A stretch of 6,799 bases of DNA from a virus (Duplodnaviria; Heunggongvirae; Uroviricota; Caudoviricetes). The first letter of the stretch is position 1. Each line of letters starts with the position of its first letter. The notes beneath the pieces were generated by a model. That model had not been told where the DNA came from. It saw only the letters and a program-made list of their open reading frames with translations, and searched no databases. A program made the translations under genes and the position numbers. The stretch spans positions 1-6,799 of the IMG/VR virus record IMGVR_UViG_2547132252_000010; one strand, given 5' to 3'. Positions 2,052 to 6,799 of this stretch are shown here, piece by piece.

Positions 2052-2330
2052 ATGTTACCCGTGTTATGGCTTGAAAGCGCAGATACCGACCTAGATGATA
2101 TAACTAGTTATATTGCTCGTTTCGACATAGATGCGGCTGAACGCTTATGGCAGCGATTAAGGGGTTGTGTGCTGCCGTTATCCGAACATCCGTATTTATA
2201 CCCACCAAGCGACAGAGTACCTGGCTTGCGTGAGATTGTAGCCCACCCTAACTATATAATTCTATACCGCGTAACAACATCAAGCGTTGAAGTAGTAAAC
2301 GTGATCCACGCAAGACGCCAGTTTCCCTAA
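2052..2330 (+). CDS. parE2: ParE/RelE-superfamily toxin (ParE2-like), 92 aa
   Basis: MLPVLWLESADTDLDDITSYIARFDIDAAERLWQRLRGCVLPLSEHPYLYPPSDRVPGLREIVAHPNYIILYRVTTSSVEVVNVIHARRQFP has the ParE-family pattern (D-x-x-I-x-x-YIA, RE-[IL]-V, YIILYRV). The start at 2052 is tightly coupled to the antitoxin stop; the in-frame ATG at 1956 would overlap paaA2 by 95 nt and is rejected. Confidence 0.85.
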   Translation: MLPVLWLESADTDLDDITSYIARFDIDAAERLWQRLRGCVLPLSEHPYLYPPSDRVPGLREIVAHPNYIILYRVTTSSVEVVNVIHARRQFP

Positions 2331-2759: not shown

Positions 2760-2960
2760 TTACTTCAGAAAGTCTCTGGTGAGTGCACCGAAGATATTGT
2801 CAACGATTTCGTCATCGAACTGCGAGGACTCATCTTCAGTTACAAGGTGACCACAATTTTTGCAGATGGCTCCCGCGAAACTGTCAGAGCCCTGCGGCTT
2901 AAAGGATGTGTCAAAGACTTCGCCACCACATTCTGGGCAAGAAAACTTGATTGTATTCAT
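2760..2960 (-). CDS. Small C4 zinc-ribbon protein with acidic C-terminal tail, 66 aa
   Basis: The minus-strand ATG at 2960 is preceded by AGGA with an 8-nt spacer (gagAGGAaattggttATG). The product MNTIKFSCPECGGEVFDTSFKPQGSDSFAGAICKNCGHLVTEDESSQFDDEIVDNIFGALTRDFLK has C-P-E-C and C-K-N-C pairs about 21 residues apart, then an acidic tail. The overlapping plus-strand ORF 2625..2981 has no ribosome-binding site and is taken as antisense noise. Confidence 0.6.
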   Translation of the reverse strand: MNTIKFSCPECGGEVFDTSFKPQGSDSFAGAICKNCGHLVTEDESSQFDDEIVDNIFGALTRDFLK

Positions 2961-3052: not shown

Positions 3053-3271
3053 ATGCAGAAACGAGAACCCGTCATCATCGCGCCAGACTATACCGATGAT
3101 GAACTTTATGAGTGGATGCACCAGAAAATTAATGCAGCGCAGGATCTGAAATGGGCCAATGAAGCCAGGGCTAAGCAGGCTGAAAATCTGTCCGCTCTGG
3201 AGCAGGATATCACCAATCTGGAAAAAGCAGCGGCATTAAGCATTGCCAGAATGATTACATACCCGCGTTAA
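3053..3271 (+). CDS. Hypothetical small protein, 72 aa, predicted helical/coiled-coil
   Basis: ATG at 3053 is preceded by AAGGAG (3042-3047) with a 5-nt spacer. The product is MQKREPVIIAPDYTDDELYEWMHQKINAAQDLKWANEARAKQAENLSALEQDITNLEKAAALSIARMITYPR. It is divergent from the zinc-ribbon gene across a 92-bp intergenic region; no family recognised. Confidence 0.55.
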   Translation: MQKREPVIIAPDYTDDELYEWMHQKINAAQDLKWANEARAKQAENLSALEQDITNLEKAAALSIARMITYPR

Positions 3272-3627
3272 TAGCTAACCAACGAAGCTAAGGTTGGTAA
3301 TTAAGGAGTTCTCCACGGGTGAGGTGGAGTGCGTGCGCCGGACACGGGTGAGCATACGGCACTGACAGTTTACTGAAAGGATATTTCCCTGAAAAGTCAG
3401 ACCATAACGCGAAAGCGCACGGCGAGGTAGCTGGTTCATAGATAGCCTGTCGTTAAATTTTCGTCGACCGTGCGCTTCCGGTTGTGGCAATCCGCGAAAT
3501 GGCGCGGCGGTAAGTATGGAGGGGTTATTCCTTCCCCCGTTGAGGACACCGGGTTGTCAGGTTGACCATACGCTTAAGTGACAACCCCGCTGCAACGCCC
3601 TCTGTTATCAATTTTCTGGTGACGTTT

Positions 3628-3670
3628 GGCGGTATCAGTTTTACTCCGTGACTGCTCTGCCGCCCTTTTT
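3628..3670 (+). terminator. Candidate intrinsic terminator: GC-rich 7-bp basal stem (GGCGGUA/UGCCGCC) plus apical 4-bp stem, followed by CUUUUUAAA
   Basis: GGCGGTA (3628-3634) pairs with TGCCGCC (3658-3664), and CAGT (3636-3639) with ACTG (3651-3654); a T5 run follows at 3666-3670. It lies about 400 nt after the stop of the 72-aa gene and just before the 19-bp inverted repeat. Confidence 0.35.
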
Positions 3671-3674
3671 AAAG

Positions 3675-3822
3675 TGAATTTTGTGATGCGGTGAATGCGG
3701 CTGAGCGCACGCGGAACAGTTAAAACCAAAAACAGTGTTATGGGGGGATTCTCTGTATCCGGCGTTAATTGTTAACTGGTTAACGTCACCTGGAGGCACC
3801 AGGCACCGCATCACAAAATTCA
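3675..3822. repeat. 148-bp segment bounded by perfect 19-bp inverted repeats (TGAATTTTGTGATGCGGTG at 3675-3693; reverse complement at 3804-3822)
   Basis: Direct reading: the arms are exact reverse complements and the match stops at both boundaries. The 110-bp interior holds three GTTAA(C) repeats (3766-3784, including GTTAACTGGTTAAC at 3771-3784) and a tandem GGCACCAGGCACC (3795-3807). The right arm ends 17 nt before the ATG at 3840 and 5 nt before its GAGGA ribosome-binding site. Confidence 0.7.
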
Positions 3823-3839
3823 TTGTTGAGGACGCGATA

Positions 3840-4028
3840 ATGGAAACGTTATTACCAAACGTTAATACGTCTGAAGGTTGTTTTGAAATTGGTGTCACTA
3901 TCAGTAACCCTGTATTTACTGAAGATGCCATTAACAAGAGAAAACACGAACGGGAGCTATTAAATAAAATATGCATTCTTTCAATGCTGGCCCGTTTACG
4001 TCCGATACAAAAAGGATGCTGGCAATGA
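3840..4028 (+). CDS. Hypothetical small protein, 62 aa
   Basis: ATG at 3840 is preceded by GAGGA (3828-3832) with a 7-nt spacer. The product is METLLPNVNTSEGCFEIGVTISNPVFTEDAINKRKHERELLNKICILSMLARLRPIQKGCWQ. Its TGA stop (4026-4028) overlaps the next ATG (4025-4027) as ATGA, implying translational coupling. The longer track ORF from 3735 has no ribosome-binding site and would run through the inverted-repeat arm. Confidence 0.45.
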   Translation: METLLPNVNTSEGCFEIGVTISNPVFTEDAINKRKHERELLNKICILSMLARLRPIQKGCWQ

Positions 4029-4216
4029 ATACAGCATTTGCACTTGTTCTGACAGTTTTTCTTGTTTCCGGAGAGCCAGTTGATATTGCAGTCAGTGTTC
4101 ACAGGACAATGCAGGAGTGTGTGACTGCAGCAACCGAACAGAAAATTCCCGGTAACTGTTACCCGGTCGATAAAGTTATTCACCAGGATAATAACGAAAT
4201 CCCGGCAGGTCTTTAA
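4025..4216 (+). CDS. Hypothetical small membrane-associated protein, 63 aa, hydrophobic N-terminal segment
   Basis: ATG at 4025 is preceded by AAGGA with an 8-nt spacer (aaaAAGGAtgctggcaATG). The product MNTAFALVLTVFLVSGEPVDIAVSVHRTMQECVTAATEQKIPGNCYPVDKVIHQDNNEIPAGL has an uncharged hydrophobic stretch at residues 3-16 (one transmembrane helix or atypical signal) and two Cys. The alternative start at 3971 lacks a properly spaced Shine-Dalgarno. Confidence 0.45.
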   Translation: MNTAFALVLTVFLVSGEPVDIAVSVHRTMQECVTAATEQKIPGNCYPVDKVIHQDNNEIPAGL

Positions 4217-4308
4217 AACAGTTCCGTAATAAACATCCGATTTCATTCTTATATGCCAGCAATGGCAGGGATTTGTTCACCCTTAAATCTGTAATGAGGT
4301 AAAACAAA

Positions 4309-6780
4309 ATGAGTAAAGTCTTTATTTGCGCCGCCATTCCGGACGAACAGGCAATAAAGGAAGAAGGTGCCGTCGCTGTAGCCACTGCCATTGAAGCCGG
4401 TGATGAACGTCGCGCCCGCGCAAAATTTCACTGGCAATTCCTGGAACATTATCCGGCTGCTCAGGACTGCGCTTATAAATTTCTTGTTTGCGAGGATAAA
4501 CCCGGTATACCCCGCCCTGCCCTCGATTCCTGGGATGCTGAATATATGCAGGAAAACCGCTGGGATGAGGCGTCTGCTTCCTTTGTCCCGGTCGAGACTG
4601 AATCCGATCCGATGAACGTCACTTTTGACAACCTGGCCCCTGAAGTACAGAACGCTGTCATGGTTAAGTTCGACACATGTGAAAACATCACTGTTGATAT
4701 GGTGATTAGCGCACAGGAATTGTTGCAGGAAGACATGGCAACATTCGACGGCCATATCGTTGAAGCGTTGATGAAAATGCCAGAAGTTAACGCCATGTAT
4801 CCGGAGCTTAAGCTGCATGCCATCGGGTGGGTTAAGCATAAATGTAAGCCTGGTGCCAAATGGCCCGAAATTCAGGCAGAGATGCGCATCTGGAAAAAAC
4901 GTCGCGAAGGTGAACGCAAGGAAGCCGGAAAATACACGTCTGTTGTTGATCTCGCCCGCGCCAGAGCCAATCAACAGCACACTGAAAATTCAACAGGAAA
5001 AATCAACCCGGTCATTGCTGCCATTCATCGCGAATACAAGCAGACATGGAAAACACTGGATGACGAACTGGCCTACGCTCTCTGGCCTGGTGATGTGGAT
5101 GCCGGAAACATTGACGGCAGCATCCATCGCTGGGCAAAAAATGAAGTTATCGACAACGGCCGCGAAGACTGGAAGCGTATCTCGGCATCAATGCGCAAAC
5201 AGCCTGATGCCCTTCGCTACGACCGCCAGACTATTTTTGGCCTTGTCCGTGAACGTCCGATCGACATTCACAAAGACCCTGTGGCACTGAACAAATACAT
5301 TACTGAATACCTGACTACAAAGGGCGTGTTTGAAGATGAAGGAACAAATCAGAGCGCAACTGACACTCTCTCGTCGCCAGTACCAGAAACTGATGCAGTG
5401 GAAACGGCAATTCCGGACAACGAAAAAACCGAATGCAAAGTGGAAGTCGAACCATCTGTAGAGCGTGAGGGGCCGTTCTACTTCCTCTTCACCGACAAGG
5501 ATGGCGAAAAATACGGTCGCGCAAACAAACTTTCTGGTCTGGATAAGGCGCTGGCTGCCGGGGCTACTGAAATCACAAAAGAAGAATATTTTGCCCGAAA
5601 AAATGGCACATACACAGGCTTACCGCAAAATGCAAATACCGCACAAAATTCTGAACAACCAGAACCGGTAAAAGTTACCGCTGACGAAGTAAAGAAAATT
5701 ATGCAGGCAGCCAATATCAGCCAGCCTGACGCCAATCAGTTGCTCGCCGCATCACGTGGTGAATTTGTTGCAGGGATTAGCGACCCGAATGATCCGAAAT
5801 GGGTGAAGGGGATTGAAACCCGCGATTCTGTGAACCAGAACCAGCAAGAAACGGAACAGAACGACCAGAAAGCGGAACAAAACAGCCCAAATACGCAACA
5901 AAACGAGCCAGAAACGAAACAACCTGAGCCAGTAGCGCAACAGGAACCGGAAAAAGTCTGCACCGCCTGCGGTCAGACCGGCGGCGGCAACTGCCCTGAT
6001 TGTGGCGCGGTGATGGGCGACGCAACATACCAGGAAACATTCGATGAAGAGTATCAGGTTGAAGTTCAGGAAGATGATCCGGAGGAAATGGAAGGCGCTG
6101 AACATCCACACAAGGAGAACACTGACGGCAATCAGCATCACGATAGCGATAATGAAACTGGCGAGACGGCAGATCACTCAATTAAGGTGAACGGTCATCA
6201 AGAAATCACATCCACCAGCAGGACGTGTGACCATCTAATGATCGACCTTGAAACCATGGGAAAAAATCCTGATGCCCCGATCATCTCAATAGGTGCAATA
6301 TTTTTCGATCCGCAAACCGGAGATATGGGACCGGAATTTAGTAAGACTATCGATCTGGAAACTGCTGGCGGGGTCATTGATCGGGACACCATTAAATGGT
6401 GGCTTAAGCAATCACGCGAAGCGCAATCTGCCATTATGACCGATGAAATCCCGTTAGATGATGCACTATTACAATTGCGGGAATTTATCGACGAAAACTC
6501 CGGTGAATTTTTTGTTCAGGTCTGGGGAAATGGAGCCAACTTCGACAACACGATTTTGCGCCGTTCATACGAACGGCAGGGGATCCCCTGCCCGTGGCGT
6601 TACTACAACGATCGCGATGTACGCACAATCGTTGAGCTGGGGAAAGCCATAGACTTCGATGCCAGAACGGCTATTCCATTCGAAGGTGAGCGCCATAATG
6701 CACTTGATGACGCCCGTTACCAGGCAAAATACGTTTCAGTTATCTGGCAAAAACTGATCCCGAATCAGGCTGATTTTTAA
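4309..6780 (+). CDS. Prophage recombination-type exonuclease, 823 aa: long N-terminal and linker region (RecE-like by recollection) with an internal C4 zinc ribbon, fused to a C-terminal DEDDh (DnaQ/ExoX-like) 3'-5' exonuclease domain
   Basis: ATG at 4309 is preceded by GAGGT with an 8-nt spacer. The C-terminal domain (from about M644, nt 6238) carries the three DEDDh motifs: Exo I MIDLETMG (D-x-E), Exo II WGNGANFD, Exo III HNALDDARYQAKY (H-x4-D). Upstream are a C-x2-C-x21-C-x2-C zinc ribbon (codons 551-565, nt 5959-6003) and an acidic Q/N/E/P-rich low-complexity linker. The middle region (LLAASRGEFVAGISDPNDPKWVKGI...CTACGQTGGGNCPDCGAVMGDATYQETFDEE) matches my memory of central RecE; this is unverified. 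Confidence 0.9.
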   Translation: MSKVFICAAIPDEQAIKEEGAVAVATAIEAGDERRARAKFHWQFLEHYPAAQDCAYKFLVCEDKPGIPRPALDSWDAEYMQENRWDEASASFVPVETESDPMNVTFDNLAPEVQNAVMVKFDTCENITVDMVISAQELLQEDMATFDGHIVEALMKMPEVNAMYPELKLHAIGWVKHKCKPGAKWPEIQAEMRIWKKRREGERKEAGKYTSVVDLARARANQQHTENSTGKINPVIAAIHREYKQTWKTLDDELAYALWPGDVDAGNIDGSIHRWAKNEVIDNGREDWKRISASMRKQPDALRYDRQTIFGLVRERPIDIHKDPVALNKYITEYLTTKGVFEDEGTNQSATDTLSSPVPETDAVETAIPDNEKTECKVEVEPSVEREGPFYFLFTDKDGEKYGRANKLSGLDKALAAGATEITKEEYFARKNGTYTGLPQNANTAQNSEQPEPVKVTADEVKKIMQAANISQPDANQLLAASRGEFVAGISDPNDPKWVKGIETRDSVNQNQQETEQNDQKAEQNSPNTQQNEPETKQPEPVAQQEPEKVCTACGQTGGGNCPDCGAVMGDATYQETFDEEYQVEVQEDDPEEMEGAEHPHKENTDGNQHHDSDNETGETADHSIKVNGHQEITSTSRTCDHLMIDLETMGKNPDAPIISIGAIFFDPQTGDMGPEFSKTIDLETAGGVIDRDTIKWWLKQSREAQSAIMTDEIPLDDALLQLREFIDENSGEFFVQVWGNGANFDNTILRRSYERQGIPCPWRYYNDRDVRTIVELGKAIDFDARTAIPFEGERHNALDDARYQAKYVSVIWQKLIPNQADF

Positions 6781-6799
6781 TGTTCAACCCCGGTCGTTG
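6780..6799 (+). CDS. 5' end of the next gene (MFNPGR...), start overlapping the exonuclease stop in TAATG; truncated by the window end
   Basis: ATG at 6780-6782 overlaps TAA at 6778-6780, a typical coupled arrangement. Only 6 codons are visible, so this is based on position alone. Confidence 0.25.

Follow-up and report, generated by a model that had tools for sequence, protein, structure and literature searches.

The stretch of DNA analysed here, 6,799 nucleotides long and referred to below as the window, carries at positions 3840-4216 two small genes, dicB and ydfD, which lie on the plus strand and share a four-nucleotide overlap. A first-pass annotation made from the sequence alone had described two small ORFs that overlap in ATGA, each with its own Shine-Dalgarno sequence, and this arrangement can be read directly at 3840-4216. 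The pair and its translation signals are as follows.

3828..3832, plus strand: GAGGA, the Shine-Dalgarno sequence of dicB, 7 nt 5' of its ATG (read from the sequence)
3840..4028, plus strand: dicB (ORF1), encoding the 62-aa cell-division inhibitor DicB; ATG at 3840, TGA at 4026-4028
4012..4016, plus strand: AAGGA, the Shine-Dalgarno sequence of ydfD, lying within the 3' end of dicB, 8 nt 5' of the ydfD ATG
4025..4028, plus strand: ATGA start/stop overlap, the translational coupling junction (read from the sequence)
4025..4216, plus strand: ydfD (ORF2), encoding the 63-aa lysis protein YdfD (DUF1482); ATG at 4025, TAA at 4214-4216

By direct reading, the junction between the two genes runs ...TGG CAA TGA / ATG AAT.... 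The N-terminus of YdfD, MNTAFALVLTVFLVSG, is hydrophobic, with a Kyte-Doolittle 11-residue maximum of 2.95 over residues 4-14, whereas hydropathy analysis of DicB reveals no comparable segment and a balanced charge; the earlier description of a 63-aa product with a hydrophobic N-terminus next to a 62-aa product of cytoplasmic type is therefore accurate. So is the placement of the pair just upstream of an exonuclease, since 92 nt separate the end of ydfD from the start of an intact 823-aa exonuclease gene. The GAGGA of dicB is unchanged in K-12, in E. albertii and in the divergent allele of phage PPompW_132418 (PPompW below), and a purine-rich counterpart of the ydfD Shine-Dalgarno sequence is retained in every allele examined. 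Longer versions of the ORFs (97 aa from a GTG at 3735; 81 aa from an ATG at 3971) were dropped, since the family models and the annotations begin at 3840 and 4025. An upstream extension of ydfD was likewise rejected, as in the PPompW allele the frame is open for just 8 codons 5' of the start.

The present analysis establishes the identities of DicB and YdfD, the intactness of both genes, their coupled overlap, the purifying selection acting on them and their operon context. The first-pass annotation had considered neither ORF recognisable by eye and had proposed a remote homology search. That judgement did not hold: Pfam, NCBIfam and PGAP between them recognise both proteins at once (YdfD in PGAP as DUF1482), the families found being DicB (PF05358/NF049927) and DUF1482 (PF07358). 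ORF1 matches the Pfam DicB family PF05358 over residues 1-62 of 62 (E 1.7e-37; 127.4 bits against a cut-off of 27) and the NCBIfam model NF049927, 'cell division inhibition protein DicB', at 132.7 bits (cut-off 100). ORF2 matches Pfam DUF1482 (PF07358) with 88 bits against a cut-off of 25, across positions 1-57 of 57, and phrog_1092 in PHROGs (E 2e-37) across residues 1-63 of 63. The NCBIfam search with YdfD returned no family, and the PGAP label for this allele is just 'DUF1482 family protein'.

Comparison with K-12 leads to the same two names. DicB of the window has the same length of 62 aa as its K-12 counterpart and is 89% identical to it without gaps, with seven substitutions (K-12 to window: K2E, Q36H, V47L, L54P, M55I, P56Q and A61W), four of which lie within the last eight residues; residues 3-35, L5 among them, do not differ from K-12. 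YdfD is 94% identical, again ungapped and of the same length (63 aa), with four substitutions (K-12 to window: S3T, V6A, M33V and I57N). At the DNA level, positions 3500-4320 of the window are 100% identical to DNA of E. coli O157:H7 strain TR01 that is annotated as dicB (WP_000449192.1), ydfD (WP_001090200.1) and exonuclease, and 96.7% identical to the Qin prophage of K-12, where the second gene is annotated as 'lysis protein YdfD'. Because both proteins give full-length, above-cut-off family matches, because they are 89% and 94% identical to those of K-12 and the DNA matches O157:H7 at 100%, and because DicF lies upstream in the gene order of Qin, the pair is very probably dicB-ydfD of a Qin-like defective lambdoid E. 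coli prophage, closest to that of O157:H7, in which the two genes would be the final small cistrons of an early-left operon of the dicBF type. The dicB-ydfD pair is thus already known: it is named, experimentally studied and annotated by the standard pipeline. Solved structures were sought for DicB and YdfD, and none was found.

The operon context draws on the following elements of the window.

1-~1300, minus strand: an IS1203 (IS3-family) copy, with an ALIL programmed-frameshift pseudoknot at 850-966
1859-2050 and 2052-2330, plus strand: a RelB-family antitoxin and RelE/ParE-family toxin pair, with the cI-position gene on one side and the remainder of the early-left operon on the other
2760-2960, minus strand: a gene for an ECs_2282-family small CxxC zinc-binding protein, inside the leftward operon (NCBIfam NF047912, 57 bits against 37)
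3053..3271, plus strand: ydfC, a cistron further upstream in this operon (phrog_1744, E 1e-39; annotated as ydfC in the matching genomes)
3614..3665, plus strand: the DicF sRNA gene (Rfam RF00039, 76.7 bits, gathering score 48, full model 1-52)
3673..3824, plus strand: a conserved structured leader, STnc100-like, in the interval between DicF and dicB (Rfam and folding)
4254..4277, plus strand: a terminator-like hairpin with a T-rich tail, in the interval between ydfD and the exonuclease gene (consensus scan, weak alone)
4309..6780, plus strand: the exonuclease gene, 823 aa and intact, the full-length counterpart of the truncated ydfE of K-12 (Pfam PF16473, E 2.3e-67, residues 642-813; phrog_2082 over its full length)

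[quoted passage not shown] DicF regulates ftsZ and other mRNAs by an antisense mechanism. In K-12, the ydfABC-dicFB-ydfD transcript measures 1,608 nt, with no longer species, and is made from dicBp under repression by DicA (PMC10448788); the hairpin at 4254-4277 fits a transcript of this length without a longer species. The earlier proposal of two co-expressed genes in the early operon of a lambdoid prophage agrees with the literature on dicB-ydfD.

The leader between DicF and dicB takes the form of a closing stem of about 20 bp around three hairpins, and its end lies 4 nt 5' of the dicB Shine-Dalgarno sequence. Its minimum free energy is -66.7 kcal/mol (z -4.9), and the RNAalifold consensus has 46 pairs, eight of them with compensatory changes. 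The match to Rfam STnc100 (RF02076), which extends over 3663-3872 and covers the full model, is sub-threshold (39.7 bits, gathering score 47; E 5.7e-7). The same element is also found 5' of kilR in Rac-SA53 and in phage Evi, 5' of terB/tciB-like genes in P7 and 5' of the partner ORF of a Klebsiella phage, and it may be a shared element for host-interference genes. Copies of STnc100 are transcribed in EHEC (PMC5331693), and a 2026 preprint links the family to the PasD sRNAs. A long stem 3' of DicF was considered as the published RNase III site and rejected, as the published site is upstream of DicF.

The 823-aa protein encoded downstream of the pair has a C-terminal Rv2179c-like 3'-5' exonuclease domain. 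Elsewhere its gene is interrupted: IS2 splits the K-12 copy (ydfE) and IS1203 the TR01 copy. Differences from the nearest genomes fall mostly at 5250-6500, a stretch with about 95% identity to TR01, and 5387-6788 is the part chiefly concerned; the pattern suggests that the 3' part of the gene is mosaic.

The immunity region in the window is damaged. The IS1203 copy is inserted about 70 nt into a cro-position 'transcriptional regulator' gene, at a site that is also occupied in some O157:H7 genomes (in TR01, a second kind of IS1203 copy splits the exonuclease gene instead). The 123-aa HTH gene at the cI position (1468-1838) has a deletion, A7 for A8 at 1472-1478, that shifts the frame just after the start, and the integrase is a pseudogene in the matching genomes. 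From these lesions it might be argued that dicB-ydfD is intact but inert cargo of a decaying prophage, with no meaningful expression and retained by hitch-hiking. We regard this as highly unlikely. The ORFs, their Shine-Dalgarno sequences and their overlap are intact and identical in many genomes, dN/dS is well below 1 (see below), and in K-12 repression of the operon is lifted under stress and in part of the cell population, with DicF orthologues expressed in O157:H7 (PMC10448788). Part of the apparent damage is also ambiguous. Relative to the closest genomes the window has four single-base deletions in homopolymers (at 681, within the IS1203 transposase, and at 1389, 1471-1478 and 2453), which could be real decay or sequencing error.

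Conservation of the locus is extensive. At a coverage of at least 80%, the 821-nt stretch occurs in 3,826 of 5,426 complete E. coli genomes, and when the E. coli hits were sampled evenly down the ranking, both genes were annotated as intact in all 21 of the hits that covered the pair. The pair is also present in sequenced phages, among them vB_EcoS-813R8 as well as mEp460, Tritos and HannyBb, the last three being plaque-forming or induced phages. Full-length proteins and the 4-nt overlap are found in 85 of 88 fetched related loci, a biased set in which 80 loci were chosen as the best YdfD matches from viral contigs and encode a YdfD 98-100% identical to that of the window; these 80 near-identical loci are therefore uninformative on diversity. 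Disruption of the ORFs in most homologous prophages, which had been named as a possible argument against the pair, was looked for and is not what these loci and the sampled annotations display (85/88 and 21/21 intact). Against E. albertii, dN/dS by the Nei-Gojobori method comes to 0.17-0.28 (dicB) and 0.10-0.15 (ydfD); between nearly identical alleles the changes are too few for an informative dN/dS.

A divergent pair is carried by the PPompW phages, among them PPompW_132418 (locus L091, 2241-2614). Its DicB is 70% identical over residues 1-53 and unrelated beyond residue 53, its YdfD, with a GTG start, is 50% identical, and its junction reads GTGA with GGAGA upstream. The nucleotides of the junction have changed and the overlap has been kept, so coupling survives, and the PPompW locus shows that dicB and ydfD diverge together and remain coupled.

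Taken together, the full-length matches to curated families, the conserved overlap and the low dN/dS (0.10-0.28) mean that the ORF pair is more than chance, which bears out the earlier claim that both ORFs are real. A 201-aa ORF on the opposite strand (3641-4246, minus strand) does cover the whole region in the window, spanning the 3' end of DicF, dicB and ydfD, and it might be supposed that this is the real gene or that the two sense ORFs are simply chance frames. The probability of either is vanishingly small: in K-12, E. albertii and PPompW stop codons interrupt the antisense frame, which is rejected as a shadow frame, a Pfam search with its product gave no match, and it is the sense ORFs that match curated families over their full length and are under purifying selection.

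Two of the related loci stand apart. A 22.9-kb contig binned into a Veillonella parvula MAG (L006) carries an Escherichia-type dicB-ydfD, 85% and 87% identical, and is most likely an enterobacterial prophage contaminant of the Veillonella bin. In Shigella flexneri SFBU0723 (L008, ~2285-2657), dicB is intact and ydfD is partly matched (residues 12-63 or 38-63, depending on the search), with the best ydfD segment starting 107 nt past the dicB stop; this locus is among the few with a disrupted lysis gene.

The functions published for the two proteins refer to the K-12 alleles, and we infer that they would apply to the alleles of the window. DicB binds MinC, recruitment to the septum depends on ZipA, and MinC depolymerises the Z ring, which results in filamentation; DicB also blocks lambda-type phages that inject via ManYZ, in a MinC-dependent manner (PMC6832061). 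The first-pass annotation had suggested host-killing or exclusion functions for the pair, and DicB, a division inhibitor analogous to Kil that excludes lambda-type phages (PMC6832061), answers to that description. The PADLOC-DB defence-system models gave no match to DicB or YdfD, despite this published exclusion of lambda. DicB requires its N-terminal ~13 residues, Leu5 among them, but not its last eight, and it matters little which residue stands at position 2, as K2A, K2G and K2R are active (PMC4967827). The first 13 residues of DicB in the window are those of K-12 except for K2E.

For YdfD, expression alone causes rapid lysis of dividing cells, and co-expressed DicB or SulA prevents this lysis, as the work of Masuda 2016 is recounted in a later paper (PMC8835842). 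Since DicB and SulA both prevent it, lysis needs ongoing division (PMC8835842). YdfD is reported to bind IspG, and extra ispG or the product of IspG rescues the cells (PMC8835842). This model comes from one laboratory and draws on overexpression, pull-down, ITC and rescue; the contact is assigned to the hydrophobic N-terminal 28 residues of YdfD (PMC8835842). Truncation analysis indicates that the terminal residues N2 and L63 matter.

A working of the locus can be proposed on this basis. In the lysogen, the operon would be kept off by the prophage repressor. DicB of the window would act through MinC, dismantling FtsZ rings and blocking division, and, again through MinC, would impair the ManYZ inner-membrane proteins so that entry of lambda-type DNA would be blocked. 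YdfD would inhibit IspG, starving wall synthesis of its isoprenoid (undecaprenyl) carrier, and lysis would follow. The ATGA overlap would tie translation of ydfD to ribosomes finishing dicB. Since translation of ydfD would then depend on that of dicB, the lysis protein would presumably not be made in the absence of its division-blocking partner.

Two features of YdfD are not explained by the IspG model, namely the C32/C45 pair and the signal-like N-terminus. Ten DUF1482 proteins, drawn from four genera, were aligned; G16, C32, E38, Q39, C45, P47, P60 and A61 are invariant among them, and both cysteines persist among homologues of E. coli, Klebsiella, Salmonella and Citrobacter that are just 36-50% identical. 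The hydrophobic N-terminal stretch followed by V-S-G, then E, resembles a signal or anchor segment. One could imagine that YdfD is membrane-anchored or exported, and that a C-terminal domain stabilised by a C32-C45 disulfide disturbs septal wall synthesis from the membrane or periplasm, with IspG not being the (main) target. That lysis requires ongoing division would suit such a protein, and the contact with IspG was mapped by pull-down to a hydrophobic segment of 28 residues that is prone to non-specific binding. We nevertheless hold this to be improbable: cells no longer lyse when ispG is overexpressed or the product of IspG is supplied, binding is backed by ITC, SEC and FRET (PMC8835842), and the hydrophobic segment is short (~13-15 residues) and has no positively charged n-region.

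YdfD also occurs away from DicB. Homologues of DUF1482/YdfD in phages of Klebsiella, Salmonella and Citrobacter are 36-45% identical, all above the Pfam cut-off, and their loci are without DicB, yet the DUF1482 gene is still start/stop coupled there to an unrelated small upstream ORF.

Klebsiella phages (L092, L095, L096), about 1382-1692: partner of 37-40 aa, phrog_22279, ATGA overlap
Citrobacter and Salmonella phages (L093, L094), 1301-1698: partner of 66 aa, phrog_3722, TGATG overlap

The 37-40-aa partner of the Klebsiella phages was considered as a homologue of the DicB C-terminus; a forced alignment gives an identity of only 16-24%, and the relationship is not established. The coupling of DUF1482 to unrelated partners outside Escherichia is a minor new point. 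It can be speculated that DUF1482/YdfD is always the second cistron of a start/stop-coupled pair in which the first cistron is interchangeable, DicB filling that place in Escherichia, although we consider so general a rule doubtful. If the rule were functional, the phrog_22279 and phrog_3722 partners would control lysis by YdfD as new division inhibitors or antidotes, each specific to its host; if it were true, lambdoid early operons would contain the coupled pair as a conserved module, 'hold division, then lyse', and not as two independent morons. Partner coupling in other genera provides a cheap route by which new division inhibitors could be sought. As a discovery, the finding of dicB-ydfD itself amounts to little, and the O157:H7-type pair of alleles is probably of modest practical value; the functional class of a coupled host-interference pair was, however, correctly guessed from raw sequence.

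The closest known system is the Qin (Kim) prophage of K-12. There, dicB occupies the same slot as in the window, after DicF and before ydfD, and K-12 YdfD shares with YdfD of the window the ATGA overlap with dicB, the hydrophobic N-terminus and the terminal residues N2 and L63. The two prophages differ in that Qin has dicA-ydfA-ydfB where the window has the relBE-like pair and the ECs_2282 gene, and in that the exonuclease gene is intact in the window only.

The pair also resembles a type II toxin-antitoxin system, in which two small cistrons overlap, and the lethality of YdfD is indeed cancelled by DicB, as recounted for the work of Masuda 2016 (PMC8835842); to this extent the earlier suggestion of a small toxin and its partner was sound. 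Its extension to a classical toxin-antitoxin system is not supported, because SulA also prevents lysis by YdfD, pointing to indirect protection via the block of division. Moreover, DicB is itself toxic, the protector comes first and the toxin second in a start/stop-coupled order, and dicB-ydfD is without a DNA-binding antitoxin. Searches of DicB and YdfD against the toxin-antitoxin family models of Pfam and NCBIfam gave no match. To our knowledge, neither direct binding between DicB and YdfD nor autoregulation has been described.

YdfD has been framed together with small lysis proteins that block the supply of wall precursors instead of degrading the wall (PMC8835842). Like phiX174 E, Qbeta A2 and LysM of levivirus M, it is a small protein that lyses growing cells. 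Unlike these, it is encoded in the early operon of a tailed phage and is not the lysis gene of that phage, the target proposed for it, IspG, acts ahead of the lipid carrier, and its sequence is unrelated to theirs.

DicB, finally, invites comparison with Kil of lambda and KilR of Rac, which are likewise small proteins that inhibit division and whose genes precede those for recombination or exonuclease in the early-left operon. Their sequences are unrelated to that of DicB, and Kil and KilR act on FtsZ by routes other than MinC. The earlier likening of the pair to kil or sieB holds as an analogy of function and position and does not extend to family membership by sequence: neither ORF matched the Kil, KilR or SieB families in Pfam, NCBIfam or PHROGs at E values up to 0.1. 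In phage Evi, a KilR-type gene, which has no YdfD-like partner, fills the dicB-ydfD slot behind the same leader, and in Rac-SA53 it is found at the equivalent position. Since KilR occupies this slot in Evi and the equivalent one in Rac-SA53, DicB and Kil are positional and functional analogues, and not homologues.
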